This document shows positions 4,064 through 55,943 of a DNA stretch of 64,000 nt, in pieces. This DNA is from Candidatus Latescibacterota bacterium. Its GTDB lineage: Bacteria > Latescibacterota > UBA2968. Position numbers and translations under genes: made by a program. Position 1 is the first letter of the stretch, and the number at the start of each line of letters is the position of its first letter. The stretch spans positions 918,932 to 982,931 of the forward strand of contig OZ220741.1 in NCBI GenBank assembly GCA_965116885.1. Reading direction: 5' to 3'. The notes under the pieces were generated by a model. That model made no database searches. It was given only the letters and a program-made list of their open reading frames with translations, and was not told where the DNA came from.

Positions 4064-4982
4064 CCACCGCATCTGCAACCGCCTCGATAAACACGGGATC
4101 GCTATTCATCATCTCTGTGCGTTCCAGGCGAATCCCGCATTTTTGTGCAATCTCCTGGCAACCGATATCAATATCGTAAAGCACCTCGACGTGATCGCAC
4201 ACAAAACCAATAGGCGCAACCAGAACATCGCGATAATTGCCAGAAGCCAGTGCCGGAATCACATCTTCAATCTGCGGACCCAACCAGGGCTCGCCCGTAT
4301 GTGCCGCACTCTGATATGAAAACATCCAATCCACCGGACCCAATCGATCCACAATCGCCTGTGCATTGCGCTTTAATTCATCGTCATAGGGATCGCCCAT
4401 CTTCAACAACCGCGCCGGCAAACTATGCGCCGAAAAAACCACCTTTGCCTTCCGCCTCACATCCTCCGAAAACTTCTCCAACCCCGCCCGTACCTTTGCC
4501 GCCTGCGCCTCGATCAACCGGGGCTGATCGCACCACGAATTGACATAGACAAACTCAATATCACTCCCCACCTCTTCCTGCGCATCCTCGACCTTCTGCT
4601 GATACAGCCCAATACTCATCCGCGAATAATGCGGCGCCATCACAATGCCCACAGCCTTCTCAACACCATCCGCCTGCATCTTCGCCACCGCCTCCACAAT
4701 CCGCGGCTTCCAGTGACGCATCCCCGTATAAGCCTTCACATCCCGCCCGCGCTTCTTCAACACCGCCTCGACATGCCCTGCCTGCTCAAACGTGCGGTCA
4801 TTCAGCGGCGACTTGCCACCAATCTGCGCGTAGCGACTGCGAAACTCCGCCACAAATTTTGGCGACATCGGCCTCCCACCCCGAATATCGCTCAAATAAG
4901 CCGCCATATCATCCAGCGAATCGGGACTGCCATAAGCCATTAAAAGCACGCCAATTATTTTCTCATCGCGCCGTATATTCAT
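4044..4982 (-). CDS. hemH: ferrochelatase (HemH/CpfC)
   Basis: Ferrochelatase-like throughout (GVLLMAYGSP.., ..SAHSLP.., ..FSYQS..). The start is probably MNIRRDEK, internal to the track ORF 4044..5039. Confidence 0.85.
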   Translation of the reverse strand: MNIRRDEKIIGVLLMAYGSPDSLDDMAAYLSDIRGGRPMSPKFVAEFRSRYAQIGGKSPLNDRTFEQAGHVEAVLKKRGRDVKAYTGMRHWKPRIVEAVAKMQADGVEKAVGIVMAPHYSRMSIGLYQQKVEDAQEEVGSDIEFVYVNSWCDQPRLIEAQAAKVRAGLEKFSEDVRRKAKVVFSAHSLPARLLKMGDPYDDELKRNAQAIVDRLGPVDWMFSYQSAAHTGEPWLGPQIEDVIPALASGNYRDVLVAPIGFVCDHVEVLYDIDIGCQEIAQKCGIRLERTEMMNSDPVFIEAVADAVESVIRR

Positions 4983-6006
4983 GCACAAAATCAACCAATC
5001 TCCGCACATTCTCCACAGGTGTGCGCTGTAAAATCCCATGCCCCAAATTAAAAATATGCCCCGACTTACCCTTCACCGAATCCAATATCCGCCCCGTCTG
5101 CCGCTCTATCTCCTCAAAAGGCGCGAACAACACAACGGGATCCAGATTGCCCTGCACACCCACATCATCGCCCAAACGGCGCCACGCCACATCTATATCA
5201 ATGCGCCAATCAACGCCAATAACATCGCCCCCCGCCTCTTTCAACAACTCGAGAATACCCGACGTACCCGTACCAAAATGAATAAGCGGCACATCCACCT
5301 CTTCTTTTGCAATCGCAATCGCCTTCTGCGAATGCGGCAACACGTACTCGCGATAATCTGCCGGACTCAACGCCCCGACCCAGCTATCAAACACCTGCAA
5401 CGCCCCGGCCCCCGCCCGGACCTGCGCGATGAGATAATCGCCAATCGCCGTCGCCATCATATCCATCAAACGATGCCATTGCGCCGGCTCGCCGTACATC
5501 AACCCCTTGGCAATCTCGTAATTGCGCGACGAACCGCCCTCCACCGCATAACAAACCAGCGTAAAAGGCGCACCCGCAAAACCAATCAACGGAACGCGAC
5601 CATTGAGTTCTGAGACAGCCATCTGAATGGCATCACTCGCATAAGGCATCGCCTCCTCGGCGGGTCTCACGGTCAACGCATCGATATCCGCCACCGTGCG
5701 AATCGGATTGTGAATAACCGGACCCTCGCCCTTTACATAATCCAGATCCAAACCCATCGACTCGAGAATCGGCAACAAATCCTGAAAAATAATCGCAGCA
5801 TCCACATCATAAGCATTCACAGGCTGCATCGTAATCGCCGTAGAGATCTCGGGCGTCTTCACCATATCGAGAAAACTGTAGCGATCGCGATACGTCCAGT
5901 AAGCCTTCATATACCGCCCGGCCTGACGCATAAACCAAACAGGCGTCGCATCCACACATTCGCGACGACACGCCTTTAAAAAACGATCTGAACCATCACG
6001 CATCAT
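4963..6006 (-). CDS. hemE: uroporphyrinogen decarboxylase
   Basis: 347 aa with the N-terminal HemE signature PVWFMRQAGRYM and the C-terminal motif NLGHGI. It overlaps the hemH start by ~20 nt. Confidence 0.9.
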   Translation of the reverse strand: MMRDGSDRFLKACRRECVDATPVWFMRQAGRYMKAYWTYRDRYSFLDMVKTPEISTAITMQPVNAYDVDAAIIFQDLLPILESMGLDLDYVKGEGPVIHNPIRTVADIDALTVRPAEEAMPYASDAIQMAVSELNGRVPLIGFAGAPFTLVCYAVEGGSSRNYEIAKGLMYGEPAQWHRLMDMMATAIGDYLIAQVRAGAGALQVFDSWVGALSPADYREYVLPHSQKAIAIAKEEVDVPLIHFGTGTSGILELLKEAGGDVIGVDWRIDIDVAWRRLGDDVGVQGNLDPVVLFAPFEEIERQTGRILDSVKGKSGHIFNLGHGILQRTPVENVRRLVDFVHEYTAR

Positions 6007-6241
6007 CCATTTCCTCCAGCACCCGCATCAAATCCTCCAGCGACACAATTTCTTCTCCCGTTCTGAGAGCCTCTGGCGCGGCATCTTCTCCAGAAGTCCC
6101 AAACACAAACCACTCAAACTCGCGCAAAAACTTCAAACAATGCCACTGACCTGTACGCGCGTAATCTTCGCTACACAACTCCCGCGGAATCGGGCACCCG
6201 TCGTACAGCCCGCGGGGACATGGTCGGCGTTTTTTCCCCAT
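5996..6241 (-). CDS. small hypothetical protein (81 aa) with 4 Cys (C8, C16, C23, C35)
   Basis: An ORF that overlaps the hemE start by 11 nt. No family was recognised, and the spacing is C-x7-C-x6-C-x11-C. The coding status is uncertain. Confidence 0.3.
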   Translation of the reverse strand: MGKKRRPCPRGLYDGCPIPRELCSEDYARTGQWHCLKFLREFEWFVFGTSGEDAAPEALRTGEEIVSLEDLMRVLEEMDDA

Positions 6242-6250
6242 CCCTGTACC

Positions 6251-7585
6251 TCATAAAATTTTAAGATGTTGATCCAATTCGTAACCCGTCACCTGCGATC
6301 TGTAATTGGCCCATTCGATCTTCTTATTCGCAATAAACTTCTCAAAAATGTGATCGCCCAGGGCATTGCGAAGCAAATCGCTACCCTCAGCCAGATCAAT
6401 AGCCTGTGACAGATCCAGAGGCAGGGTTTTAATCCCCGCACTTTCCCGCTCAGCACTGGACATCTCAGCCACATTTTTTTCCATAGGCGGCGGCACTTCA
6501 TAGCGTTTTTCAACGCCCTCCAACCCCGCAGCCAACATAATTGCAAATGCCAGATAGGGATTGCAGGCCGGATCGGGCGACCGGTATTCGATACGCGTAG
6601 TACTCTCCTTATCCAGAGAATAGGCCGGCACGCGCACCAGATCCGAACGATTGACCACCGACCACGTCGTGTACAAAGGCGCTTCATAACCCGGCACCAA
6701 CCGCTTATACGAATTCACCCACTGATTGGTCACCAGCGTTATCTCACACGCATGCTCGAGCAAGCCCGCAATAAAATACCGCGCCGTATCCGACAGATGG
6801 TACTCATCTTCAGCATCGTAAAACGCGTTAGCCTCTCCCTTAAACAGCGACATATTCGTATGCATACCATTGCCATTGACACCAAAAAGAGGCTTGGGCA
6901 TAAACGTCGCCCAAACGCCGTGCTTCACGGCAATCTCCTTCACCACCAAACGATAAGTCATCGCATTGTCCGCCATCGTCAGCGCATCGGTATAAAGCAA
7001 ATCGATCTCGTGCTGGCTGGGCGCATCTTCGTGATGGCTGGACGCCACCTCAATCCCCATCTTCTCCAGCGTCAACACCGTATCCCGGCGCAAATCACTC
7101 GCCACATCCAGAGACGTCTGGTCAAAATACCCACCCTCATCCAGACCCACGAGAGGAACCTCGGGTTTCTCAAAATAGAAAAACTCCATCTCTGGACTCA
7201 CGTAAAACGCAAAGCCCATATCGCCTGCGCGTCTCAAATTCTTTTTCAGCACCCAGCGCGGGTCTCCCTGATATGGATTTCCCCCCGGCTGGAGAATATC
7301 GCAAAACATACGCGCAACCGTACCGCCTTCTTGCGGGCGAAAAGGCAGCACCTGAAAAGTATTGGGATCGGGCATGGCGATCATATCGCTCTCGTCAATG
7401 CGCGCAAAGCCCTCTACGGACGACCCATCAAAACCGATCCCCTCGATCAGAGCACCATCGAGTTGCTCAACGGGAATGGCGACACTCTTTAGAAAACCCA
7501 AAATATCCGTAAACCAGAGCCTGACAAATTTGACCCCGTGTTCTGACGCGGCATTCAGCACGTATTCGCGGCTTCCTTCGTTCAT
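6251..7585 (-). CDS. glnA: glutamine synthetase type I
   Basis: A GS-I hallmark protein (VKFVRLWFTDILG, ..EVASSHHE.., NPY.A). The start is taken as MNEGSREY, 14 codons inside the track ORF. Confidence 0.9.
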   Translation of the reverse strand: MNEGSREYVLNAASEHGVKFVRLWFTDILGFLKSVAIPVEQLDGALIEGIGFDGSSVEGFARIDESDMIAMPDPNTFQVLPFRPQEGGTVARMFCDILQPGGNPYQGDPRWVLKKNLRRAGDMGFAFYVSPEMEFFYFEKPEVPLVGLDEGGYFDQTSLDVASDLRRDTVLTLEKMGIEVASSHHEDAPSQHEIDLLYTDALTMADNAMTYRLVVKEIAVKHGVWATFMPKPLFGVNGNGMHTNMSLFKGEANAFYDAEDEYHLSDTARYFIAGLLEHACEITLVTNQWVNSYKRLVPGYEAPLYTTWSVVNRSDLVRVPAYSLDKESTTRIEYRSPDPACNPYLAFAIMLAAGLEGVEKRYEVPPPMEKNVAEMSSAERESAGIKTLPLDLSQAIDLAEGSDLLRNALGDHIFEKFIANKKIEWANYRSQVTGYELDQHLKIL

Positions 7586-7708: not shown

Positions 7709-7972
7709 CGCTATCCCATATTTTAATTGTGAAACAACGCAAAAATGATGGTCAAACGTACGCTGATTATGTTTCCAACAGGTTTCATAAGTGTTTCGCC
7801 AATATTAAAAGCAATGGGATTTATGCATAGAAAATTTATTTGCTTATCAGGTTATTCTTTATTATTCTTCCGCTGCGATTACAAACGTTTCTCATTGCTC
7901 CATAGTTGTAAAACAGCTTCCCAGAAAGAGGACACAGCTATAGGGGCTTATTTTTCAAAAGGGAGGACCACC

Positions 7973-9763
7973 GTGAAGAAAACTCGAACATCACCCACAT
8001 ACATGATTCCCATTGTCGGACTGCTCGTGCTGGCCGGCGTCTTTTCCAATGCGCCTCCCGCCATAGCAGATTGTCCACTTCCTCCCGGCGTGACACCTCC
8101 TGCGGAACCGGCTGTAACGGCGCAGCAGGTGGAAGATGGTAGCGCTACCCTGCAGGACTTCGCGCTGGCCCTGAAAAATCATCCGGAGTTTAGCCAGGTA
8201 TCGGCGAGTTTGCATAGGCTGTTGCACCTTGGATGTCTCTTCAGGCAGGAGGGGGGGCCGTACCGTTCCGGTTCCACCTACATCGTACAACTGACGCCCG
8301 ACAGCAGGCTATCCGCTCACGCAAAGGACATGGCATTATCGGGCAGGCTGCTCAATCCCATAATTTATGGCGCGATCCTTCAAGCATTGGGAATCAACCC
8401 AGCCGACCTCACCGACCGTGCTGCGGCCCTGGCCGCTTTCGCTGCCGCGGTAGCCGGGGATGGCGGCCCGTTCAATGTGCCCGATATCCCAGGGGCTTCC
8501 GGCTATGCCGCCGCAGTTATATCGCCCAGTTTCCAGACCCCGATCGTGCTGCTCGTGGGATTCGATCTCAACGAATCTCACGTAGTTGAAGAAGTCATCG
8601 ATTACGGCGACCCGACCATTACCGCCAGTGACGTAGTAGATCGAGAAACCCTGAAGGCATTCGTCACGCAAGCGGGGGAGCGGTTTCTCGAAATCCAGAA
8701 GACCGGCGATCCAGCCGCTTTCTATAAAGCCAGGAACGCCATGCGGGATCCGAACGGACCCTGGAGACACGGTTCCGTGTACCTCTACATCCTGGATCTT
8801 ACCAGCAACATCATCACGTTTCACGGCGCGTTTCCGGACAGATTCGAACTTCAGCCTCTGATAGCCACTGTCCGAGACGTCGTTACTGGAGAGCTTATAC
8901 TACCGCAGGTCATCGAAGCGGCAAAAAATAACCCGGAAGGCGGCTTCGTGGAGTATTACTTCGACGATCCCACGGACGACACAGACAGTGCCGACATTCC
9001 CAAGGTGGGATACGCACGCGAGTTCAAAGGTGAACTCAGTTTAGGCGGACGCGTAGTCCCACTCCACTACATCGTCGGGTCGGGTTTTTACGGGCGCGCA
9101 CCCGAGGTCGTCCCAACTGATCCCTATACGAAAGTGGAAGCCACGGTCCTGGGCGACGCTGTCGAGGGATTGACCGTCGAGTTTGCGCGATCCATCGCTG
9201 GCCAGCCGGCCGACTACGCCTATAACGCCGTCACAGATGTTAATGGCTCTTTGTCCCTCACCATCTCCAACCCAGATGGGGTCACTGGTTACTATACAGC
9301 CCGCGCCAGCAACGCCGATGGCGAAACCGTCGGTCAGTGGCACAGCATTCCCCTCAACCAGAACCAACGCCAGGTCCTAAAACTGACCCTGAGTGGCGAT
9401 ATGAGAGTCGTACGCGTCGAACCACTGGCAGCATCCAAGCCAGTATTAGTAGCCGAGACAGTGGCAGTATCCGAGACAGTGCCAGAAGTTAGTGGTCTGG
9501 CACCCAACTTTCCCAACCCATTCAACAGCGCCACCCTGATCACCTACCACCTGTCCAGCCCTGGACCGGTGCAACTGGTAATCTACAATGTGCTGGGACA
9601 ACCCGTACGCACGCTGGTGAATCAGTCCCAGGCCGCAGGCTCCTACCAGATACGGTGGGATGTCCTCGATCATCGGGGCGTCTCGCTATCGACGGGGGTC
9701 TATATCGCACGCCTGAGCTATCCCGGCGGGGTGCAGACCCAACGGCTGCTCTACCTCAAGTAG
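7973..9763 (+). CDS. secreted Cache-like domain protein with T9SS C-terminal sorting domain (paralog 1 of 3)
   Basis: A GTG start preceded by aaaagggagga. The signal peptide is MIPIVGLLVLAGVFSNAPPAIA. The central region matches the sCache_2-like pattern (GSVYLYILD..HGAFPD..GGFVEYYFDDP..PKVGYAREF..GSGFY). The C-terminal ~90 aa (LAPNFPNPFNSATLITYHLS..VIYNVLGQPVRTL..YQIRWD..GVYIARL..QTQRLLYLK) is a canonical T9SS CTD. The track ORF start at 7745 is an upstream in-frame extension. Confidence 0.75.
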   Translation: MKKTRTSPTYMIPIVGLLVLAGVFSNAPPAIADCPLPPGVTPPAEPAVTAQQVEDGSATLQDFALALKNHPEFSQVSASLHRLLHLGCLFRQEGGPYRSGSTYIVQLTPDSRLSAHAKDMALSGRLLNPIIYGAILQALGINPADLTDRAAALAAFAAAVAGDGGPFNVPDIPGASGYAAAVISPSFQTPIVLLVGFDLNESHVVEEVIDYGDPTITASDVVDRETLKAFVTQAGERFLEIQKTGDPAAFYKARNAMRDPNGPWRHGSVYLYILDLTSNIITFHGAFPDRFELQPLIATVRDVVTGELILPQVIEAAKNNPEGGFVEYYFDDPTDDTDSADIPKVGYAREFKGELSLGGRVVPLHYIVGSGFYGRAPEVVPTDPYTKVEATVLGDAVEGLTVEFARSIAGQPADYAYNAVTDVNGSLSLTISNPDGVTGYYTARASNADGETVGQWHSIPLNQNQRQVLKLTLSGDMRVVRVEPLAASKPVLVAETVAVSETVPEVSGLAPNFPNPFNSATLITYHLSSPGPVQLVIYNVLGQPVRTLVNQSQAAGSYQIRWDVLDHRGVSLSTGVYIARLSYPGGVQTQRLLYLK

Positions 9764-9784
9764 TGCCGAACGCACAAAGCAAAA

Positions 9785-9818
9785 GCCCGCTGATCATATA
9801 GATCAACGGGCTTTTTTT
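9785..9818 (+). terminator. rho-independent terminator (gcccgctgatcatatagatcaacgggc + T7)
   Basis: An 11-bp stem with one mismatch, followed by TTTTTTT, directly after the paralog-1 stop. An identical element follows paralog 2. Confidence 0.7.
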
Positions 9819-9878
9819 CAGATCATCAGGAAACCGGAGCGTTAACCCACTCTACTGAACCCGCATCCCTGCTTATCC

Positions 9879-10118
9879 TCACAATAGCTTTACCAGAGCA
9901 GCGACCACGCCAATCGCGACCACCATCATGGAACCCAGACGCAAGGTCAAGTCGTGCTTCAGACGCAATTCCAATTCTTTCAAATCCTGCTTCGTCGCCA
10001 ATTTTTCGTCAATCAGTGCCGCCTGTGAACGCGCCAGCACCTCCGCCTGTTCTTCTGGCATCCCCGCATGGGTCAGTTCTTTTACGAAAGCGTGGGTATC
10101 AAAAATAATTGCTGCCAT
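9879..10118 (-). CDS. DUF1640-family small coiled-coil membrane-anchored protein
   Basis: 79 aa, MAAIIFDTHAFVKELTHAGMPEEQAEVLA...LVKLL, resembling the conserved bacterial DUF1640/CCDC90-like family. Confidence 0.55.
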   Translation of the reverse strand: MAAIIFDTHAFVKELTHAGMPEEQAEVLARSQAALIDEKLATKQDLKELELRLKHDLTLRLGSMMVVAIGVVAALVKLL

Positions 10119-10388
10119 CTAATTTTCTCCGGTATTGTTCATGCACTCCCATTTTGTTCTTTTAATGCAGCCAGAACATAAATAAATATATGAAAAATCC
10201 TTTTATAGCACAATGTAAAGTCAGGAAATCTCTGCCCAACTTCAATACCAGATTGCCATCACCATAAACATGGCAGGCCTGTGCCCTCAGTTTATGCATA
10301 GAAAATCTATTTGCTTACCAGGGCATCTTCATATTATTCTTCCTGCGCTCATTCCTTATCACCCATTCCAAAAGGGAGGACCATCCCG

Positions 10389-12230
10389 ATGAAAACTCGA
10401 ACATTACCCCCATACCTGATTCCCATTGTCGGACTGCTCGTGCTGGCTGGCGTCTTTTCCAATGCGCCTCCCGCCATAGCAGATTGTCCACCCCCTCCCG
10501 GCGTAATATCCCCTGTGGCACCGAGTGTGACGGCGCAACAGGTGGAAGATGGCAGCGCTACCCTGAAGGACTTCACGCTGGCCGCGAGGGAACAATTTGT
10601 TATGCAGCTCCAGACGGCTGAGAATCTGGGACAAGTGGTCTATTACGGATGTCTCTTCCGGCAAGAGGGGAGCTATTGGCATTCCGGTTCCACCTACATC
10701 GTGGTTATGAGGGCCGATGGCAGTGTTTTGATTCACGCGAAGAACATGGCATTGTCGAGCAGGCGACTCAACCCCCTTATTTATGCAGAGATCCTTTCTG
10801 CCCTGGGAGTACCCTCAACCGTTCTGGCCAACCTGGCATCTCCCGATACTGCTATTGCCGCCCAGGCTAATGCCGAAGTGGTTAATATATTGACGCAAGG
10901 ACCGGATGCCGCATTCGATGCGACCACCCCTATACCAGACCTGCGACCTGGCATACCGGGTGCCTCCGGCTATGCCGCCGCATATTTTTCGGACTTTTTT
11001 AGAGGCCCGCTTGTGATGATAGCCGGTTTCGAGCTCAATGAAACTCACGTAGTTGAAGAAGAGATCGATCACATTACCCCGGCCGTTACCGCCAGGGACG
11101 TGGTAGATCGAGAAACCCTGAAAGCCTTCGTCACGGCAGCAGGGGAGTACTGTCTCGAACTTCGGAAAACCGGCAATTTCCCCGGTGGGATAGCCAGGAT
11201 CGCACTTCGGGATCCGGACGGGCCCTGGAGACACGGTTCGGTGTACCTCTATGTCCTGGATACTACCAGCAACGTAATCCAAATACACGCTGCGTTTCCG
11301 AACAGATACGAGCTACGACCTCTGATAGCGACCGTCCGAGACGCGGTTACCGGAGAACTCATACTACCGCAGGTCATCGAAGCGGCGAAAAGTGACCCGG
11401 AAGGCGGCTTCGTGGAGTATTACTTTGACGATCCCAATGACGACACCGATAGCGCCGATATCCCCAAGGTCGGATACGCACGCGAGTTCAAAACGCAAAC
11501 CGAGTTAGGTGGAAGGGTAGTCCCGTACAACTTCATCATTGGGTCGGGTTTTTATGGACGCGCACCCGAGGTTGTCGTCCCGACTGAACCCCATACGGTA
11601 GTAGAAGCCACGGTTATGGGCGATGCCGTCGAGGGATTGACCGTCGCGTTTGCGCGATCCATCGCCGGCAGCCAGCCCGACTACGCCTATAGCGCTGTCA
11701 CAGATGCCAATGGCGCTTTGTCCCTCACCATCTCCAACCCAGATGGGGTGAGTGGTTACTATCAGGCACGCGCCCGCAACGCCGATGGCGAAACCGTCGG
11801 CCAGTGGCACTCCATTCCCCTCAACCAGAACCAACGCCAGGTCCTGGAACTGACCCTGAGCGGCGGTATGAAGATCGTACGCGTCGAACCACTGGTCGCA
11901 GCCAAGCCAGTGGCCGTATCCGAGCCCGTGTTATCAGCCGAGATAGTGCCAGAAGTTAGTGGTCTGGCACCCAACTTTCCCAACCCATTCAACAGCGCCA
12001 CCCTGATAACCTATCACCTGTCCAGCCCCGGTCCGGTACAATTGGTAATCTACAATGTGTTGGGACAGCCGGTACGCACATTGGTGGATCAATCTCAAGG
12101 CGCAGGCTCCTACCAGATACGGTGGGATGTCCTCGATCATCGGGGCGTCTCGCTATCGACGGGGATCTACATCGCACGCCTGAGCTATCCCGGCGGAGTG
12201 CAGACACAACGGTTGCTCTACCTCAAGTAG
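10389..12230 (+). CDS. secreted Cache-like domain protein with T9SS C-terminal sorting domain (paralog 2 of 3)
   Basis: An ATG start preceded by aaaagggagga. The signal peptide MKTRTLPPYLIPIVGLLVLAGVFSNAPPAIA, the Cache-like core and the T9SS CTD are as in paralog 1. The N-terminal ~250 aa are divergent while the C-terminal ~300 aa are near-identical. Confidence 0.75.
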   Translation: MKTRTLPPYLIPIVGLLVLAGVFSNAPPAIADCPPPPGVISPVAPSVTAQQVEDGSATLKDFTLAAREQFVMQLQTAENLGQVVYYGCLFRQEGSYWHSGSTYIVVMRADGSVLIHAKNMALSSRRLNPLIYAEILSALGVPSTVLANLASPDTAIAAQANAEVVNILTQGPDAAFDATTPIPDLRPGIPGASGYAAAYFSDFFRGPLVMIAGFELNETHVVEEEIDHITPAVTARDVVDRETLKAFVTAAGEYCLELRKTGNFPGGIARIALRDPDGPWRHGSVYLYVLDTTSNVIQIHAAFPNRYELRPLIATVRDAVTGELILPQVIEAAKSDPEGGFVEYYFDDPNDDTDSADIPKVGYAREFKTQTELGGRVVPYNFIIGSGFYGRAPEVVVPTEPHTVVEATVMGDAVEGLTVAFARSIAGSQPDYAYSAVTDANGALSLTISNPDGVSGYYQARARNADGETVGQWHSIPLNQNQRQVLELTLSGGMKIVRVEPLVAAKPVAVSEPVLSAEIVPEVSGLAPNFPNPFNSATLITYHLSSPGPVQLVIYNVLGQPVRTLVDQSQGAGSYQIRWDVLDHRGVSLSTGIYIARLSYPGGVQTQRLLYLK

Positions 12231-12251
12231 CGCTGAACACACAAAGCAAAA

Positions 12252-12285
12252 GCCCGCTGATCATATAGATCAACGGGCTTTTTTT
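12252..12285 (+). terminator. rho-independent terminator, identical copy of the 9785 element
   Basis: gcccgctgatcatatagatcaacgggcttttttt. Confidence 0.7.
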
Positions 12286-12311
12286 GTACGCCTCATCTTT
12301 TTTTCAACCCC

Positions 12312-12818
12312 CTACTGAACCCGCATCCATGTATCGACCCATGCCCCCTCATAGGATGCCGTCATCGTATTGCCTTCAAAAACCCACTGCTGCTCATCGT
12401 GTGCAATCTCAATTTTATCGCCCTCAACCGTAATTTTCCCCTTCACGCTTTTGGCCTTGGGATAAATCGACATCGGTGCTTCGGCAGAAGACCGATACCC
12501 CTGGCGAACCAGCACATGCCTGGCTCGCGTAATCGCCGACGTAGAAATTTCATACGTACTGGCAGCATAATTAAATCGCCGGGGTGTACCATCTTTTAAG
12601 TCTTCGAGAAGATTGAGCGTAACATGTGCTTTTCGAGAACTAATAGGCTCCCACAAAAGCGATCCTTTTACATGCGGATCACTCAACACAGTACCATCTT
12701 GCAATTGACGACTTTGCAAAACCCAGGTACCCGCCAATTGTGTTTGCATATCTGACAGACGATCACTACATCCCTGCATCGCGAACACAGACAGGAGGCA
12801 TATCATCAGGCGTTTCAT
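12312..12818 (-). CDS. hypothetical lipoprotein
   Basis: A signal peptide with a lipobox-like sequence, MKRLMICLLSVFAMQGC. No family was recognised. Confidence 0.5.
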   Translation of the reverse strand: MKRLMICLLSVFAMQGCSDRLSDMQTQLAGTWVLQSRQLQDGTVLSDPHVKGSLLWEPISSRKAHVTLNLLEDLKDGTPRRFNYAASTYEISTSAITRARHVLVRQGYRSSAEAPMSIYPKAKSVKGKITVEGDKIEIAHDEQQWVFEGNTMTASYEGAWVDTWMRVQ

Positions 12819-12997
12819 TTTGATCTCCCTGCAAGTTATCATCCGAAAAACGAACAGCTACAGTATATTTTTCGATTTGCGTGCTGTCAAGCCAAAAAAA
12901 TAATGTCTGCCCATCTCGCACACAAAGCCAACCAAACCCCCGCCCGGAATAACCAGGCGAGGTTTTGGTTTTAATGTAATTTTAGATTGTGTAAAAC

Positions 12998-13026
12998 TTG
13001 ACCTTTTTTAATAACAGTGATATATT
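12998..13026 (+). promoter_or_regulatory. sigma-70-type promoter TTGACC-17nt-TATATT upstream of Cache/T9SS paralog 3
   Basis: The -35 TTGACC lies at 12998-13003 and the -10 TATATT at 13021-13026, with an exact 17-nt spacer. Confidence 0.5.
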
Positions 13027-13029
13027 CAA

Positions 13030-13070
13030 AGGCGATATATAAGCCAAAAATCTATATATCGCCTTTTTGG
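13030..13070 (+). promoter_or_regulatory. leader hairpin followed by T-run (possible attenuator/terminator-like element) between promoter and start of paralog 3
   Basis: AAAGGCGATATATA-AGCCAAAAATC-TATATATCGCCTTTTTGG forms an 11-bp perfect inverted repeat followed by TTTTT, lying between the -10 and the RBS aaaaggagga. Confidence 0.4.
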
Positions 13071-13104
13071 CAACTCTTAAATCTAACTCAAAAGGAGGAC
13101 CATC

Positions 13105-14946
13105 GTGAAGAAAACTCTAACCTTACTCACCGGACTGCTCGTGCTGGCTGGCGTCTTTTCCAATGCGCCTCCCGCCATAGCAAATTGTCCACTTCCTCCC
13201 GGCGTGACGCCTCCTGCGGACCCGCGTGTGACGGCGCAACAGGTGGTAGATGGCAGCGCTACCCTGATGGACTTCGCGCTGGCCGTGAGAGAGCGGTCCA
13301 AAGAATATGCCCAAGGGCACGCGACCACGGAGGAAGCGGTATATATCGGATGCATCATAAGGCAGGATGATGGGATATGGCATTCCGGTTCCACGTACAT
13401 CGTGAGCCTGACGCTCGACGGCAGAGTGTACATTCACGCGAAGAACATGGCACTGTCGGGCAGGCTGATCAACCCGGTGATTTATGGAGCGATCCTTTTT
13501 GCGCTGGGCGTATCCCCAACCGATCTGGCGAATCTGGCGTCTCCTGATCCTGCTACCGCCGCCCAGGCTTTCGCCGCCGTCCTGGGCACATTGTTGCAGG
13601 AGCCGGACGGCGCATTCGACGCGACCACCTCTATTCCAGGTCTATCACCAGGAATACCAGGCGCTTCGGGCCATGCCGCCGTCTATGTCGAGCCCAATTT
13701 AGGGAACGTTCCGATTGTGATGCTCATGGGATTCGATCTCAATGAATCTCACTTGGTTCCCATTACCGATGAAACAATCGATTACGGCGATCCGGCTGTC
13801 ACTGCCAGGGACGTGGTGGACAGAGAAACCCTGAAGGCCTTCGTCACGCAAGCGGGAAATTACTTTCTTGAACTCCTGAAGACCGGCGATGCAGCCGCTC
13901 TTTCGCAAGCCAAGATCGCCTTGCGGGATGAGAACGGACCCTGGAGACACGGCTCGGTGTATCTCTACGTCCTGGATATTGTCAGCAACATCATCATATT
14001 TCACGCAGCGTTCCCGGACAAATACGAGTATCGGCCTCTGGTGCCGACCGTCCATGACGCTGTGACCGGAGAGTTCATTCTGCCTCAAGTCATCGAAGCG
14101 GCGAAAAGTGACCCGGAAGGCGGCTTCGTGGAGTATTACTTCGACGATCCCACCGACGACACAGACAGCGCCGACATCCCCAAGGTGGGATACGCACGCG
14201 AGTTCGCCGCTTCAATCCAGAGGGCAGACGGAAGCACAGTCCCGGCTGACTTCATCGTTGGGTCGGGCTTCTATGGGCGCGCACCCGTTGTTGTCCCGGA
14301 CGGTCCCTATACGGTAGTAGAAGCCACGGTTATGGGTGACGCCGTCGAAGGGTTGACCGTCGCGTTTGCGCGATCCATCGCAGGCCAACAGCCCGACTAT
14401 GCCTATAGTACTGTCACAGATGCCAATGGCTCTTCGTCCCTCACCATCTCCAACCCAGATGGCGTGAGTGGGTACTATACAGCCCGCGCCAGCAACGCCG
14501 ATGGCGAAACCGTCGGCCAGTGGCACTCCATTCCCCTCAATAGCAATCAACGCCAGGTCCTGGAACTGACCCTGGGCGGCGGCATGAAGATCGTACGCGT
14601 CGAGCCACTGGCCGCATCCAAGCCAGTGCTCGTAGCCGAGACAGTGGCAGTATCCGAGACAGTGCCGGAAGTTAGTGGTCTGGCACCCAACTTTCCCAAC
14701 CCATTCAACAGCGCCACCCTGATAACCTACCACCTGTCCAGTCCCGGTCCGGTGCAACTGGTAATCTACAATGTGCTGGGTCAACCCGTACGCACATTGG
14801 TGGATCAGTCCCAGGCCGCAGGCTCCTACCAGATACGGTGGGATGTCCTCGACCAGCGGGGCGTCTCGCTGTCAACGGGGATCTACATCGCCCGCCTGAG
14901 CTATCCCGGTGGGGTGCAGACCCAACGGCTGCTCTACCTCAAGTAG
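13105..14946 (+). CDS. secreted Cache-like domain protein with T9SS C-terminal sorting domain (paralog 3 of 3)
   Basis: GTG start at 13105 after the RBS aaaaggagga. Signal peptide MKKTLTLLTGLLVLAGVFSNAPPAIA. Same architecture and a near-identical C-terminal ~110 aa. Confidence 0.75.
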   Translation: MKKTLTLLTGLLVLAGVFSNAPPAIANCPLPPGVTPPADPRVTAQQVVDGSATLMDFALAVRERSKEYAQGHATTEEAVYIGCIIRQDDGIWHSGSTYIVSLTLDGRVYIHAKNMALSGRLINPVIYGAILFALGVSPTDLANLASPDPATAAQAFAAVLGTLLQEPDGAFDATTSIPGLSPGIPGASGHAAVYVEPNLGNVPIVMLMGFDLNESHLVPITDETIDYGDPAVTARDVVDRETLKAFVTQAGNYFLELLKTGDAAALSQAKIALRDENGPWRHGSVYLYVLDIVSNIIIFHAAFPDKYEYRPLVPTVHDAVTGEFILPQVIEAAKSDPEGGFVEYYFDDPTDDTDSADIPKVGYAREFAASIQRADGSTVPADFIVGSGFYGRAPVVVPDGPYTVVEATVMGDAVEGLTVAFARSIAGQQPDYAYSTVTDANGSSSLTISNPDGVSGYYTARASNADGETVGQWHSIPLNSNQRQVLELTLGGGMKIVRVEPLAASKPVLVAETVAVSETVPEVSGLAPNFPNPFNSATLITYHLSSPGPVQLVIYNVLGQPVRTLVDQSQAAGSYQIRWDVLDQRGVSLSTGIYIARLSYPGGVQTQRLLYLK

Positions 14947-14990
14947 CGCCGAATGGTTGGGTTTGTCAATTTTCTCATAGCTAAAAAAAT

Positions 14991-15016
14991 GCCCCTGAAA
15001 ATTCAGGGGCATTTTT
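14991..15016. terminator. bidirectional rho-independent terminator (A-run, gcccctgaaaattcaggggc, T-run) between paralog 3 and the sigma factor gene
   Basis: A 9-bp stem flanked by aaaaaaa on the 5' side and attttt on the 3' side. Confidence 0.65.
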
Positions 15017-15048: not shown

Positions 15049-15888
15049 TTAAGTCACTTCCAGCAACGGCTCAAGCCGCGAGCGACGGCGCGGATGGCGC
15101 AATCTGCGAAGCGCTTTCTCCTTAATTTGCCGCACGCGCTCCCGGGTCAAATTAAACCGAACGCCGATCTCTTCAAGCGTAAGTGGCTCTTCACCGCCCA
15201 GGCCAAAATACAGGCGCAAAACCTCAGTCTCCCGGTCATCCAGAGATGTGAGCACATCTTTTACCTGTTCGCGCACTGAATCCTCTACAACTTCCTCATC
15301 CGGTGCCTTTTGTGTCTTATCGGGCAACACATGCAACAAACTGTGGTCATCCTCCTCGCGGAAAGACGCATCCAGAGACCAGACATCGCGCGCGCGCATC
15401 AGCGTATCCTGAACCATCTCCACCGACACACCGAGTTCTTTTGCCACAGTTTCGGGTTCGGGTTCGGTCTCGCTTGACTGCCTCAGTTCGCGCGACACCT
15501 TTGAAATATTGTGCAACAAATCAATGCGGTTAATAGGCAAACGCACAACCCGTGAATCCTGTGCCAAACTCTGGTGAATCGCCTGGCGTATCCACCATAC
15601 CGCATAAGAAATAAACTTAAAGCCCCGCGTGCCATCAAAGCGCTCGGCAGCCGTCATCAGCCCCATATTTCCCGCGCTGATCAAATCCGCCAGAGGCACC
15701 CCGTGATTTTGATATTCGCGCGCTACGCTCACCACAAATCGGAGATTGGCCGCAACCAATTTATCTCTGGATCTCTGACAACCTTTGTGGATTTTCTTTG
15801 CCAGTTCAATTTCTTCCGCACTCGAAAGGGGTTCAGACGAGGCAATGTCTCGCAGATACAAATCCAGAGACTCACTATCTTGTATCAT
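15049..15888 (-). CDS. RNA polymerase sigma factor, sigma-70 family (RpoD/RpoS-like, ~280 aa)
   Basis: Region 2 YAVWWIRQAI, region 3, and region 4 LTLEEIGVRFNLTRERVRQIKEKALRRLRHP. The start is probably MIQDSESLDLYLRDI. Confidence 0.85.
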   Translation of the reverse strand: MIQDSESLDLYLRDIASSEPLSSAEEIELAKKIHKGCQRSRDKLVAANLRFVVSVAREYQNHGVPLADLISAGNMGLMTAAERFDGTRGFKFISYAVWWIRQAIHQSLAQDSRVVRLPINRIDLLHNISKVSRELRQSSETEPEPETVAKELGVSVEMVQDTLMRARDVWSLDASFREEDDHSLLHVLPDKTQKAPDEEVVEDSVREQVKDVLTSLDDRETEVLRLYFGLGGEEPLTLEEIGVRFNLTRERVRQIKEKALRRLRHPRRRSRLEPLLEVT

Positions 15889-15933
15889 AATTCCAGGCAA
15901 GGGGAACCTCCTGTAAAAGGATGGGGAGAACAA

Positions 15934-16500
15934 CTATAAAACAGAATGGGGAGCCGACATTTTGCGAATTTGCGCCAGGTGTTTCGTCATAAACTGATAC
16001 ATACTCATCGATGTGTCGCAGGCCATCAAACCCGCTCGCACATCTGAATTTTTAAACAACAGTGCCAAATTGCTCAAAACCGACAGATAAGGCACAGGAG
16101 CCGCATCGGGTACTGCAACCATGCATATCACGTGAACGGATTCTGCATCTGGGGGAAAAGCAATACCCGTCTGAGAAATGCCCAACGCCACACCGGGCTG
16201 AGCAACCGATCGGCATCGCGCATGGGGCAGTGCAACACCTCGACCCAAAACAGTACTCATCTGATCTTCTCGATCCAAAACAGTTTGCAAAAACTTCAGG
16301 CTATCGACCACCTTCCTGCACCCATAGAGCCGATCCACCAACTCTTTGATCGCCCCCAGGCGATCTTGTGATTGCAACTCGGGTACAAGAAGCGAAACAT
16401 CAAAGTGAAAAACATCGTCTTCAGATAAAACTGTCGTTTGAGTCACCTGATCTCCACACGCAACAAAATGCAGAATTTGCACCTTCAAACTATAAAACAT
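15934..16500 (-). CDS. ptsN: PTS EIIA-Ntr-like protein (PtsN family, fructose-type EIIA domain)
   Basis: GRGVALPHAR, with the phosphorylatable His in IPHA-like context, and GIAFPPDAESVHVICMVAVPD. It ends 1 nt before the sigma-factor ORF. Confidence 0.7.
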   Translation of the reverse strand: MFYSLKVQILHFVACGDQVTQTTVLSEDDVFHFDVSLLVPELQSQDRLGAIKELVDRLYGCRKVVDSLKFLQTVLDREDQMSTVLGRGVALPHARCRSVAQPGVALGISQTGIAFPPDAESVHVICMVAVPDAAPVPYLSVLSNLALLFKNSDVRAGLMACDTSMSMYQFMTKHLAQIRKMSAPHSVL

Positions 16501-16753
16501 CTATCAAAAAAGGAGAATAACGCATTAACATCAATAAAAACATAAGGTTAATCTCCAGCATCAAAAATCCGCGATAAACGCGCCCCAATATAACAGCAAT
16601 ATCCGTGCCAAAAACATGCATATAGGCATAACTTATTGTTTATATTGAACAAAAATCAGAAAGTCCGATCTGCTATGCTATTTTTGTCTCATTTAGAATG
16701 CAAAAATTGCACCCTATTTTATAACCAAAATGCAAAAATTGCGTTTTTAAAAA

Positions 16754-33380: not shown

Positions 33381-33418
33381 AGCACCTGATCAATCTCATC
33401 AGATCAGGTGCTTTTTTT
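33381..33418 (+). terminator. rho-independent terminator after secDF (agcacctgatc...gatcaggtgct + T7)
   Basis: An 11-bp perfect stem followed by ttttttt. Confidence 0.7.
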
Positions 33419-33437
33419 ATCAGATGGGAATAACACA

Positions 33438-44254: not shown

Positions 44255-45097
44255 ATGGCAACCGCCGAAACACCCATCGCGATGCATGAACCATCCCTCT
44301 ACGAAACAACCAGACGGGCAGACTATCTCGACACCCTCGCCGACATTGACGACCGTCAAATCGCCCAATTTCACGAACAGGGATACCTCGCCATTCAACG
44401 GGCATTCACGCCGCAACAAATCGAATCCGCGGGCCAGGCCATGTGGGATCTCATCGACGGCAAAAGCCAGGACTTCAAAGGCGTAATGGCCGAAGCCGCC
44501 AAACGCGGGCAATTTTCCGAACTCACAGGCAAAGCGCGCCGCGACAGCGTGCGTAAAATCTGGAAATTCGTCGATTATGACACCCGGCTCAACGACCTCG
44601 CCCACGACCCCAACATCCTCTCCGTACTCTCCCGCATGATGGACGACACACCCGTACTCTTTCAGGACATGGGACTGATCAAACCCCCGCACATCGGCCG
44701 CGAAAAACCCTGGCATCAGGACTGCGCGTACTTCAACTATCCCGTCGGCACCACCGTCGTCGGCGTATGGATCGCCATCGATGCCGCTACAGAAGAAAAC
44801 GGATGCTTGCACATCATCCCCGGCTCACACCGCGAAGGACCCATCCCGCACTTCAGGCGACGCGACTGGCAAATATGCGACACCGACGTCGCCGTCCCCA
44901 GAAACGTCACCGTCCCCCTCAACCCCGGCGGATGCCTCTTCTGGCACGGCATGACCCATCACGGCAGCCCAACCAACCAATCCGCCCACCGCCGCAGGGC
45001 ACTGCAATACCACTACCGCCCCGAAAGCACCGTGGAAATGACGGCAAAAGAACGCCTCGCCATCTACGGCGGCGACGAACTCGGCGTAACGTACTGA
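44255..45097 (+). CDS. phytanoyl-CoA dioxygenase (PhyH) family Fe(II)/2OG oxygenase, canonical HxD
   Basis: PWHQDCAYF, VWIAIDAATEENGCLHIIPGSHRE and LFWHGMTHHGSPN. Confidence 0.75.
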   Translation: MATAETPIAMHEPSLYETTRRADYLDTLADIDDRQIAQFHEQGYLAIQRAFTPQQIESAGQAMWDLIDGKSQDFKGVMAEAAKRGQFSELTGKARRDSVRKIWKFVDYDTRLNDLAHDPNILSVLSRMMDDTPVLFQDMGLIKPPHIGREKPWHQDCAYFNYPVGTTVVGVWIAIDAATEENGCLHIIPGSHREGPIPHFRRRDWQICDTDVAVPRNVTVPLNPGGCLFWHGMTHHGSPTNQSAHRRRALQYHYRPESTVEMTAKERLAIYGGDELGVTY

Positions 45098-50488: not shown

Positions 50489-50546
50489 GGGCAACCACGA
50501 AGGTTGCCCCTACAACAATGGGACTGCACAGGGACCGTCCTCTACG
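50489..50546. repeat. two degenerate REP-like hairpin repeats (gggcaaccacgaaggttgcccctaca; ggactgcacagggaccgtcctctacg)
   Basis: Read directly from the sequence. Confidence 0.6.
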
Positions 50547-55775: not shown

Positions 55776-55943
55776 GACTCTCTCCTCTTTTGTGCGAATT
55801 GATACTGTCAATCCAATTATAGGCACTTACCTATCGTGAAAAAAGTATAAAGTGACCTGATACAACAAAAAACCCGGTCTTAATAATGAGACCGGGGAGA
55901 AATTTCATATTTGTAGTGGCGCATTCGAGAAGCCCTTTTCTGT

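Follow-up and report, generated by a model that had tools for sequence, protein, structure and literature searches.

The question raised by this locus is what a Cache-type ligand-binding region does when it is joined to a secretion tail. Three paralogous genes, P1, P2 and P3, encode this arrangement in the 64-kb window, which is the whole stretch of Latescibacterota DNA that was analyzed. The reading favored here, with moderate confidence, is that they encode horizontally exchanged, surface-displayed or released stand-alone ligand-binding proteins and not sensors; this is a predicted function.

The original prediction described three paralogs of 596–613 aa, and intact plus-strand ORFs are present at the positions that it gave (Table 1). 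The P3 ORF begins precisely at its GTG start codon; the ORFs of P1 and P2 are open upstream to positions 7745 and 10311, respectively. Two observations support the starts that had been chosen for these two, GTG 7973 and ATG 10389: all three starts have the same ribosome-binding context, AAAAGG(G)AGGACCATC, 5–8 nt upstream, and the N-terminus MKKT..LLVLAGVFSNAPPAIA is conserved in the alignment of P1–P3. The genes are in tandem on the same strand, but "head-to-tail" is not fully accurate, as a conserved minus-strand ORF is located between P2 and P3. The terminators of P1 and P2 are the same hairpin. The promoter-like site upstream of P3 matches 10 of 12 consensus positions and has an extended -10 TG. 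With their own ribosome-binding sites and terminators, and with no transmembrane or transmitter part, P1–P3 represent complete genes and not pieces of a larger signaling protein. Near-identical orthologs with the same synteny are present in other assemblies and the head, i.e., the ~360-aa region formed by the two Cache modules, has at least 989 database relatives; P1–P3 are therefore real genes and not chance ORFs.

Table 1. Features of the P1–P3 locus. Positions are those of the window; gene ends are the ORF ends in the ORF listing.
Feature	Position	Strand	Description and basis
P1 gene	7973..9763	+	596 aa; ORF listing, RBS, Pfam/NCBIfam matches
P1 Cache module 1	about 8081-8572	+	tblastn with P3 domains, alignments
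P1 Cache module 2	8615-9103	+	tblastn with P3 domains, alignments
P1 beta spacer	9107-9496	+	tblastn with P3 domains, alignments
P1 T9SS type A CTD	9497-9760	+	tblastn with P3 domains, alignments
Hairpin and T-run terminator after P1	9781..9818	+	AAAAGCCCGCTGATCATATAGATCAACGGGCTTTTTTT; read from sequence
P2 gene	10389..12230	+	613 aa; ORF listing, Pfam/NCBIfam matches
P2 Cache module 1	about 10497-11063	+	tblastn with P3 domains, alignments
P2 Cache module 2	11082-11570	+	tblastn with P3 domains, alignments
P2 beta spacer	11571-11963	+	tblastn with P3 domains, alignments
P2 T9SS type A CTD	11964-12227	+	tblastn with P3 domains, alignments
Bidirectional hairpin terminator, P2 / minus-strand ORF	12248..12282	.	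15-pair stem, 7 GC pairs
Conserved 176-aa ORF	12312-12842	-	between P2 and P3
Promoter-like site upstream of P3	12998..13026	+	TTGACC, 17 nt spacer, TG, TATATT; consensus match only
P3 gene	13105..14946	+	613 aa; paralog used for structure model
P3 Sec signal peptide	13105..13182	+	aa 1-26, MKKTLTLLTGLLVLAGVFSNAPPAIA, AxA cleavage motif; read from sequence
P3 Cache-like module 1 (variable module)	13213..13779	+	aa 37-225
P3 sCache_2-like module 2	13798..14286	+	aa 232-394; invariant Y286/H300/Y344/K360, acidic loop DDPTDDTDSAD
P3 beta-rich spacer	14287..14679	+	aa 395-525; probably Ig-like
P3 type A T9SS C-terminal sorting domain	14680..14943	+	aa 526-613
Hairpin terminator, P3 / convergent sigma-factor gene	14983..15016	.	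AAAAAAATGCCCCTGAAAATTCAGGGGCATTTTT; read from sequence

The layout is the same in P1–P3: a Sec signal peptide, Cache module 1, Cache module 2, a beta spacer and a type A C-terminal sorting domain (CTD) of the type IX secretion system (T9SS). Searches with Pfam and NCBIfam profiles show no further domain in any of the three. The claim that no transmembrane or cytoplasmic signaling part is present is borne out, and on this ground the predicted architecture holds. In the P3 spacer, strands are predicted but poorly modeled (pLDDT 30–55), and all spacer profile matches (Big_1, BIg21 and DUF4307) are below threshold. The N-terminal ~250 aa had been described as variable and the C-terminal ~300 aa as nearly identical. 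Amino acid identity among P1–P3, which is 74–76% over the whole proteins, does rise toward the C-terminus, but the values by region (64–80% for signal peptide and linker, 49–59% for module 1, 74–77% for module 2, 79–85% for the beta region and 97–98% for the CTD) represent a gradient and not a sharp split.

A structure model of P3 and a structure search show Cache folds in the head, in agreement with the Cache-type region originally proposed. The motifs quoted for it, GPWRHGSVYLY(I/V)LD, GSGFY, GSTYIV...HAK(D/N)MALS and VTGE(L/F)ILPQVIEAAK..PEGGFVEYYFDDP.DDTDSADIPKVGYAREF, are found in the translations; HGAFPD(R/K)(F/Y)E is approximate only, with HGAFPDRFE in P1 but HAAFPNRYE in P2 and HAAFPDKYE in P3. 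The model and an internal comparison reveal two collinear, tandem-duplicated modules, each with its own N-terminal helices. This differs from dCache proteins (PctA, TlpC, DctB), where the modules are arranged around one long shared helix. Of the three paralogs, P2 alone matches the Pfam dCache_2 profile above its cut-off of 26.5 bits (30.5 bits). The match covers profile positions 80–182 of 298, one module's worth. The dCache_2 profile is also hit by 24 of 30 diverse relatives. Pfam sCache_2 scores of the P1–P3 heads are below the cut-off, and no Cache chain was recovered when PDB sequences were searched with a profile. The closest structural matches are characterized sCache_2 domains.

Comparison was made with the sCache_2 chemoreceptor domains of Adeh_3718 (4K08), the V. 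parahaemolyticus MCP (4EXO), P. syringae PscD, P. putida McpP and H. pylori TlpB (3UB6). The P1–P3 heads are likewise extracytoplasmic and have the Y..H...Y...K...GxGxY pattern. They differ from these receptors in having no flanking transmembrane helix, HAMP or signaling domain, in having two tandem modules fused to a secretion tail, and in an acidic insertion before the Lys of module 2. Y286, H300, Y344 and K360 are invariant in 51 homologs and in 20 heads from different phyla. Their spacing (14, 44, 16) resembles that of PscD (13, 40, 13), where Tyr90, His103, Tyr143 and Lys156 hold the carboxylate (PMC5062169); the correspondence of P3 to PscD is one of motif spacing and not of residue-level alignment. 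Conservation within the head is highest in module 2 (63–93% across phyla). Because it keeps the Tyr/His/Tyr/Lys pattern of carboxylate-binding sCache_2 domains and is near-invariant across phyla, module 2 probably binds the same small ligand throughout the family, most likely a carboxylate-bearing one. The proposed diversification of specificity on a constant scaffold thus fits module 1, which varies between paralogs and may tune or add specificity, but not module 2, which carries the canonical pocket motif. Cys28, just after the P3 signal peptide, and Cys83 are also invariant in the 51 homologs, and each of the three repeat units of protein P0121 has their equivalents. This pattern probably reflects an extracytoplasmic disulfide, which would staple the two modules as the head folds.

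The C-terminal sequence that had been quoted (LAPNFPNPFNSATLITYHLS...QTQRLLYLK) is found in P1–P3, and its assignment as a T9SS CTD is confirmed by TIGR04183 (type A) scores of 43–47 bits against a cut-off of 23. Neither a non-Cache fold, a missing CTD match nor a gene fragment, the findings named as contrary to the original prediction, was encountered. The CTD superposes on those of PorU, mirolase and PorZ, and the NCBI pipeline names the orthologs "T9SS type A sorting domain-containing protein". Pfam Por_Secre_tail scores 21–23 bits, under its cut-off of 27, and FlgD_ig scores 30–34 bits, over its cut-off of 27. None of porK/L/M/N, sov, porV and porU is within the 64-kb window. These Pfam scores, the window without a T9SS core gene, and histidine kinases and a sigma-54 regulator nearby would suit a generic FlgD-like Ig domain that is no secretion signal; P1–P3 would then be soluble periplasmic binding proteins that pass ligand to a transporter or sensor in the inner membrane, in the manner of LuxP with LuxQ or TorT with TorS. 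This is improbable in view of a TIGR04183 score about twice the cut-off, the pipeline annotation, the barrel found at the CTD position in relatives from other phyla, and the adjoining kinases, which are cytoplasmic PAS/GAF types with synteny in close relatives only.

As stand-alone surface binders, P1–P3 would be exported as precursors by Sec, with cleavage after AIA, and the type A CTD would route them through the T9SS. By analogy with characterized T9SS cargo, we infer subsequent removal of the CTD and either surface linkage or release of the protein. The likeness to Bacteroidota type A cargo (gingipains, mirolase, PorU, PorZ) consists of a Sec signal and a ~80-aa Ig-like TIGR04183 CTD with a matching fold; secretion machinery was not observed in the window. 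P1–P3 differ from that cargo in their host, a Latescibacterota-type sponge symbiont, and in carrying a Cache binding module in place of a protease, glycosidase or classical adhesin.

Beyond the original prediction, the head represents a large cross-phylum family with interchangeable export tails, sponge-derived for a verified subset of MAGs. It forms 449 clusters at 50% identity. Among GTDB species genomes there are 116 relatives, whose heads are 56–92% identical across at least eight taxonomic labels; the MAGs that carry the head are labeled Latescibacterota/Gemmatimonadota, Alpha-, Gamma- and Deltaproteobacteria, Acidobacteriota, Binatia, Nitrospirales and Opitutales. Where P1–P3 have the CTD, 16 of 30 diverse relatives have the PF03797 autotransporter barrel, and one relative is fused to LRRs. 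Multi-unit relatives have 3–7 modules, Calx-beta-like repeats and a barrel. By a heuristic classification of C-terminal endings, T9SS tails are confined to MAGs labeled Latescibacterota/Gemmatimonadota (26/34), and a terminal W or F, the barrel-type ending, predominates in Alpha-, Gamma- and Deltaproteobacteria and Nitrospirales. The tail follows lineage: Latescibacterota have a T9SS CTD, Proteobacteria and others an autotransporter barrel, and the remaining lineages LRR or unrecognized tails. In relatives from other phyla an outer-membrane barrel takes the place of the CTD, so the head is predicted to belong outside the outer membrane. Usual type Va passengers are beta-helices. No mention of a Cache passenger was found in the literature searched; P1–P3 themselves have no barrel. 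Synteny around P1–P3 is kept only in close relatives, and no neighboring gene conserved across phyla points to a pathway.

Sponge origin was verified for the MAG sets RHO, COS, IRC, APA and SB06xx (PMC8163846 supplement); for UUID-named ENA MAGs it was taken from project context and not one by one. P1–P3 may play a role in the host association. A possible but rather unlikely reading is that the heads are host-matrix adhesins, which bind a macromolecular sponge ligand (for example a protein, or a glycan that is sialylated or contains uronic acid) and not a free small molecule, and so hold the symbiont in place in the mesohyl or let it pass as "self" and escape phagocytosis. The head is displayed on adhesin-type scaffolds (autotransporter passengers, 3–7-module arrays with Calx-beta-like repeats, the LRR fusion), the family has multiple copies that lie in tandem and are mosaic between strains, a frequent pattern in surface adhesins, and its distribution is in part verified as sponge-derived. 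Cell-attachment genes and the degradation of sialic acid and glycosaminoglycans are enriched in sponge MAGs (PMC8163846), and surface Cache domains were proposed as host-recognition candidates in sponge Thaumarchaeota (PMC7848895). The small-ligand pocket residues are conserved, however, and acetate, pyruvate, propionate and urea are among the small molecules bound by the closest structural matches. This reading overlaps the favored one, with ligand class as the only difference. Small carboxylates cross the outer membrane via porins. A diderm therefore has no obvious need for a surface binder of such molecules, and the real ligand of the head may be a carboxylated glycan or macromolecule.

The high number of copies, their tandem arrays and the existence of giant relatives with many modules would also be compatible with a structural or coat component, or with a scavenger or decoy that sequesters host or competitor signals, with the Cache fold as a scaffold; a target molecule shared by all sponges could explain why module 2 is so strongly conserved across phyla. 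This is very unlikely, as the conserved pocket residues favor specific binding and nothing points specifically to a coat or decoy, although a decoy and a binder are inseparable on the evidence.

The favored reading, a binding protein exchanged between lineages, agrees with the sequence relationships of the heads. The P3 head shares 72% identity with heads from Alphaproteobacteria and Thermodesulfobacteriota, but only 62% with P1 and 66% with P2. The strand skew of the genome is extreme, and among the housekeeping-rich plus-strand genes the third-position skew is weakest in P1–P3. Mosaicism between close strains coincides exactly with P1–P3. Compared with a relative whose flanks are 97–100% identical, P1 is only 40–93% identical, and the P2 and P3 tails are more diverged than their heads; in another genome, a 93% match to the P1 head lies at a different locus. 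The best reading is horizontal exchange of the head family between bacteria that belong to marine sponge holobionts. In each recipient lineage the same head would be fused to a tail for export or anchoring that is compatible with the envelope of that lineage; in Proteobacteria, Nitrospirales and others, for example, this tail is a type Va autotransporter barrel. Within Latescibacterota, recombination between paralogs would swap heads and homogenize tails.

The Cache family is not mentioned in the PMC8163846 survey of sponge symbionts. It resembles the ankyrin, LRR and TPR proteins, in which sponge symbionts across phyla are enriched, in being common to unrelated symbionts and in a presumed action at the host interface (PMC8163846); unlike such eukaryote-like repeats, the head is a bacterial sensor-domain fold with another likely origin. 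An extracellular Cache region with no cytoplasmic output of its own is also present in animal alpha2-delta calcium-channel subunits, but these are very distant, being eukaryotic, dCache_1-type, GPI-anchored and part of a channel complex.

Paralogues P1, P2 and P3 are three Cache genes arranged in tandem on the forward strand (see table, where the start codons are those of the original prediction). A common ribosome-binding context, AAAAGG(G)AGGACCATC, is found 5–8 nt upstream of each of the three starts, and each gene is followed by its own terminator. P1–P3 are thus three separate, complete genes and not fragments of a larger signalling protein, as the original prediction had also held. The sequence motifs it quoted are all present in the three translations, one of them only approximately. 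Overall amino acid identity among the three products is 74–76%; by region it is 64–80% in the signal peptide and linker, 49–59% in Cache module 1, 74–77% in module 2, 79–85% in the beta spacer and 97–98% in the C-terminal domain (CTD). There are no additional copies of the head (modules 1 and 2) or of the CTD in the 64-kb window. The 176-aa ORF between P2 and P3 matches no family in Pfam or NCBIfam, and its position is kept in close relatives only.

Positions of the Cache genes and of other features in the window
Feature	Position	Strand	Remarks
P1	7973–9763	+	start codon GTG
Terminator after P1	9781–9818		hairpin and T-run
P2	10389–12230	+	start codon ATG
Terminator after P2	12248–12282		hairpin and T-run
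176-aa ORF	12312–12842	-	lipoprotein-like N-terminus (MKRLMICLLSVFAMQGC)
P3	13105–14946	+	start codon GTG
Terminator after P3	~14983–15016		hairpin and T-run
Sigma-70-family gene	15049–15933		
ptsN-like EIIA gene	15934–16500		
Sigma-54 promoter	16595–16610	-	perfect consensus, TGGCACGGATATTGCT
Dockerin protein 1	33408–36017	+	~865 aa, tandem paralogue
Dockerin protein 2	36218–38803	+	~865 aa, tandem paralogue
PhyH-family paralogue	44255–45097		
PhyH-family paralogue	45107–45964		
Dockerin protein 3	48945–50483	+	512 aa
PhyH-family paralogue	50542–51420		
PhyH-family paralogue	51444–52301		
PhyH-family paralogue	54966–55826		

In the structure model of P3, the head takes the PAS-like alpha/beta fold known from solved Cache sensor domains, N-terminal helices included, and this bears out the Cache fold that had been proposed from sequence. 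Further structural matches of the model are to dozens of dCache and PAS sensor domains. The dCache_2 profile (PF08269) scores 25.1, 30.5 and 25.6 bits in P1, P2 and P3, such that P2 alone is above the Pfam cut-off of 26.5, and sCache_2 (PF17200) is sub-threshold at 12.7–17.2 bits (cut-off 25). Among relatives, dCache_2 is matched by Pfam in 24 of 30 sampled members at E ≤ 1e-3. When the profiles of modules 1 and 2 are compared with each other, they match with a probability of 90%, an E value of 1.4e-6 and 26% identity; VTAQQVEDGSATL..F is paired with ITA.DVVDRETLKAF, and R.EG..WRSGSTYIV.L with RDPNGPWRHGSVYLYVLD. The modules align end to end and have separate helices (positions 54–84 in module 1 and 240–274 in module 2). 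Because module 1 aligns with module 2, the head represents a tandem duplication of an sCache_2-like unit and not a dCache arrangement. In dCache two modules, one membrane-distal and one membrane-proximal, lie on one long shared helix, whereas the P1–P3 heads are collinear repeats.

Cache domains are described as the most frequent extracellular sensor modules in prokaryotes, where they are known as inputs of membrane-bound signal transducers. The canonical transducers (MCP, histidine kinase and GGDEF proteins) have a Cache domain flanked by transmembrane segments and a cytoplasmic transmitter; P1–P3 have neither. HAMP, MCPsignal, HisKA, HATPase and GGDEF domains are not found in P1, P2 or P3 with Pfam and NCBIfam, and all three proteins end in the beta spacer and CTD, in agreement with the earlier suggestion that a transmembrane segment and a transmitter are lacking. 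An N-terminal Sec signal peptide with an AxA site can be read from each sequence. Together with the C-terminal export tails, it places the predicted location of the head outside the cytoplasm, so that the Cache fold would here be exported cargo without a transducer.

Module 2 has a putative binding pocket for a small ligand. In the sCache_2 protein PscD, the carboxylate is held by Tyr90, His103 and Lys156 together with Tyr143, all of them conserved across the sCache_2 seed alignment (PMC5062169). Module 2 contains Y286, H300, Y344 and K360 (P3 numbering), none of which varies among 51 homologues or among 20 heads of various phyla; the distances between them, compared as motif spacing, are similar to those between the PscD residues. 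In module 1 the Tyr and His are retained (Y98 and H111), with PGASG in place of the Lys. A PDB profile search with module 2 yields nothing relevant, and the PorU CTD is the only match in a PDB sequence search with the full protein. Judged from the conserved residues, module 2 probably binds a small, carboxylate-bearing ligand. Cys28 and Cys83 are also invariant and are found once per unit in relatives with several units, which suggests an extracytoplasmic disulfide between them.

The extreme C-terminus of each protein (aa 513–592 or 530–609 of 596- or 613-aa proteins) matches TIGR04183, the NCBIfam model of the type A T9SS sorting domain, with 43.6, 42.8 and 47.0 bits in P1, P2 and P3 (cut-off 23). 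The T9SS sorting domain of the original prediction is therefore upheld at about twice the cut-off, and also by the modelled fold, an Ig-like beta-sandwich with structural matches to the PorU, mirolase and PorZ CTDs. The corresponding Pfam family Por_Secre_tail (PF18962) is just under its cut-off in all three (21–23 bits versus 27), and the related Ig fold FlgD_ig is above the Pfam cut-off. A homologue search with the CTD only recovers almost exclusively short CTD fragments and a few that are fused to LRR or He_PIG domains. No T9SS core genes (PorK/L/M/N, Sov/SprA, PorV, PorU) are present in the 64-kb window, and nothing on T9SS in Latescibacterota or Gemmatimonadota is found in the searched literature. 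From the C-terminal signature we infer that P1–P3 are exported by T9SS, after which the CTD would be removed and the proteins attached to the surface or released.

In a 90% cluster database, at least 989 sequences are related to the head (aa 28–385 of P3), and the best 120 of these are all at least 66% identical. The few of these 120 that are named are termed 'T9SS type A sorting domain-containing protein' or 'hypothetical protein'. When each 50% cluster is represented by one sequence, the head has 449 matches, of which 119 fall below 1e-30. Among GTDB species, each scanned with a single genome, 116 relatives are found, from which 77 loci were kept. Identities to the P3 head are 62–92% in MAGs labelled Latescibacterota or Gemmatimonadota, 56–72% in Alphaproteobacteria, 69–72% in Thermodesulfobacteriota/Deltaproteobacteria, 59–70% in Acidobacteriota, 59–69% in Binatia, 57–61% in Gammaproteobacteria, 60% in Nitrospirales and 90% in Opitutales. 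Tandem copies are common, with 129 family genes in 73 loci. Bins from sponges are represented in the supplement of Robbins et al. 2021 (PMC8163846), where RHO1_bin_28 is from Rhopaloeides odorabile, COS4_bin_9 from Coscinoderma matthewsi, IRC1_bin_16 from Ircinia ramosa and APA_bin_29 from Aplysina aerophoba, and SB06xx bins carry the prefix IRC_PAM. Bins that NCBI labels 'Gemmatimonadota' are GTDB Latescibacterota in the same supplement, and RHO1_bin_28 and COS4_bin_9 belong to class UBA2968. The UUID-named OZ, OY and CBD assemblies are, from their project context, consistent with the sponge genome-note series. The family crosses phyla, and it is sponge-derived for the checked subset of MAGs.

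Some relatives are very large. P0121 (1408 aa) has three complete heads; in P0148 (2142 aa), seven single modules are interspersed with Calx-beta-like repeats, and the protein ends in a barrel. Together with a third protein of 2506 aa (locus L056, 45–7565), these giants string together 3–7 Cache units and Calx-beta-like repeats, with a barrel at the C-terminus, and resemble repetitive surface fibres made from the same head.

Extension of the matches to full ORFs and a heuristic sorting of the C-termini by their final residues reveal that the tail differs by lineage. The T9SS ending ...RLLYLK is found only in MAGs labelled Latescibacterota or Gemmatimonadota (26 of 34). A terminal W or F, with which autotransporter barrels typically end, is found in Alpha-, Gamma- and Deltaproteobacteria, Nitrospirales, Longimicrobiales and some Binatia. 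In the 30 members sampled with Pfam, besides dCache_2 (24), the autotransporter beta-domain PF03797 is present in 16 (from other lineages), FlgD_ig in three and leucine-rich repeats in one. Type Va autotransporters carry this C-terminal barrel; P1–P3 differ in that Pfam finds no PF03797 in them. Two other conserved tails, ending in ...GVVNDGG(T/A)PGERTGDGAYIPA.. and ...EWQQ.SQNFVIT(D/N)V(Q/E), are found in Acidobacteriota-type MAGs (loci L030, L049, L064 and L037) and in Binatia/Thermodesulfobacteriota (L043, L045 and L073). They match no recognised sorting or anchor domain in Pfam at E ≤ 1e-3 and may be lineage-specific sorting or anchoring domains. A further arrangement is seen in locus L006 (OZ219851.1, labelled Opitutales), where tandem proteins of ~990 aa (4417–7371 and 7899–10874) have heads 85–90% identical to those of P2 and P3 and longer, non-T9SS tails, probably the leucine-rich-repeat tail of the one sampled relative. 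Either the head was transferred to Verrucomicrobiota very recently or the sequence was misbinned.

Since the tails differ by lineage, the same head is joined to the carrier lineage's own surface-export device. This exchange is the strongest argument that the head acts outside the outer membrane. P1–P3 could alternatively be read as periplasmic binding proteins, but the TIGR04183 score and the relatives with autotransporter tails make that unlikely. The family is an unusually clear case of one head re-fitted with different secretion tails between phyla, i.e., a natural experiment in secretion-signal modularity.

Similarity among the heads extends across phylum borders. For the P3 head, identity reaches 72% with heads from Alphaproteobacteria and Thermodesulfobacteriota versus only 62% with P1 and 66% with P2, and the P1 head is 65% identical to a gammaproteobacterial head versus 61–62% to its own paralogues. 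Plasmid and phage vectors were considered as carriers and rejected: none of 72,556 plasmids or 50,697 phages carries the head, nor does IMG/VR, the sole match being an unrelated Cache domain at 32%. The composition of the window displays an extreme strand asymmetry (GC skew -0.20, AT skew +0.14). For housekeeping genes on the plus strand, GC skew at third codon positions is -0.34 to -0.71; for minus-strand genes it is +0.50 when read on their coding strand, and the bias is independent of gene orientation. The cumulative skew is monotonic, hence there is no replication origin or terminus in the window. Close relatives (loci L002 and L003) share the asymmetry, and proteobacterial loci that carry the head family do not have it. 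P1–P3 are among the least skewed plus-strand genes (-0.17 to -0.22), as are the two tandem dockerin genes. The low skew of the Cache genes fits recent import or frequent exchange.

Comparison of strains shows changes within the array itself. P1 was compared with loci L002 (4868–6685) and L042 (5822–7606). L002 is from an assembly with flanks 97–100% identical to the window, yet its gene in the same slot is 40–93% identical to P1 per 100 nt. In P2 and P3, the heads are 99–100% identical to those of the flank-identical assembly and the 3' parts only 66–98%. Slot 1 is absent in L003, and the P1 head has a 93% match at a different chromosomal locus of another genome (OZ242320.1). Slot 1 is hypervariable between near-identical strains. 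The tail regions of all paralogues of six genomes are 81–96% identical with no orthology signal, which indicates concerted evolution. These comparisons show that the Cache genes evolve as mosaics.

Module 2 is 63–93% identical across phyla and the carriers in the MAG sets that could be checked are marine sponge symbionts, which makes it likely that the ligand is a molecule central to life inside sponges. We infer a role for P1–P3 at the symbiont-sponge interface. A bolder and rather doubtful extension is an inter-phylum 'symbiosis cassette': unrelated symbionts would have acquired the head horizontally, as a surface receptor for one sponge-derived molecule, and plugged it into their own export system (T9SS, type V or others). 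Whether a symbiont resides in the sponge, or is tolerated by it, would depend on this binding, and recombining arrays would vary the outer module. The main rival to the reading of P1–P3 as binders of a small ligand differs solely in ligand class: the ligand would be a host glycan or macromolecule and the protein an adhesin. Knowing the ligand would open symbiont-host or symbiont-symbiont chemistry to concrete tests in a setting where almost nothing is culturable.

The domains themselves are already known, and orthologues are in databases under a generic name only. The searched literature holds no description of Cache modules as T9SS cargo or autotransporter passengers, of a tandem sCache_2 head, or of such a head spreading between phyla of sponge symbionts while export tails are exchanged, and it does not link dCache with sponge symbiosis for this head family. 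The closest published remark concerns sponge Thaumarchaeota, in which Cache Pfams are enriched and might serve to recognise the host (PMC7848895).

The trio is flanked by glnA and by a cluster with the sigma-70-family gene, ptsN-like, ntrC-like, histidine kinase and glnD genes. The sigma-54 promoter lies upstream of the ptsN-like and sigma-70-family genes and just downstream of the ntrC-like activator gene. This site beside ptsN-like and ntrC-like genes, with glnA and glnD near, identifies a nitrogen-regulation neighbourhood. A link of the trio to a nitrogen regulon was rejected: there is no sigma-54 promoter upstream of P1, P2 or P3, synteny of the trio is limited to close relatives, and no neighbour gene is conserved across phyla around the head family.

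Elsewhere in the window, three secreted-looking proteins have a type I dockerin at the C-terminal end; no cohesin is seen in the 64 kb. The tandem pair has a weak Peptidase_Mx match and the third protein weak Cu2_monoox_C and cytochrome c matches. Up to five paralogues of PhyH-family (phytanoyl-CoA dioxygenase-like) Fe/2-oxoglutarate oxygenases are located within 12 kb. Four match Pfam PhyH; for the fifth, the assignment relies on weak NCBIfam hydroxylase matches only. This cluster adjoins an apiosidase-like glycosidase and a xylanase/esterase-like protein.
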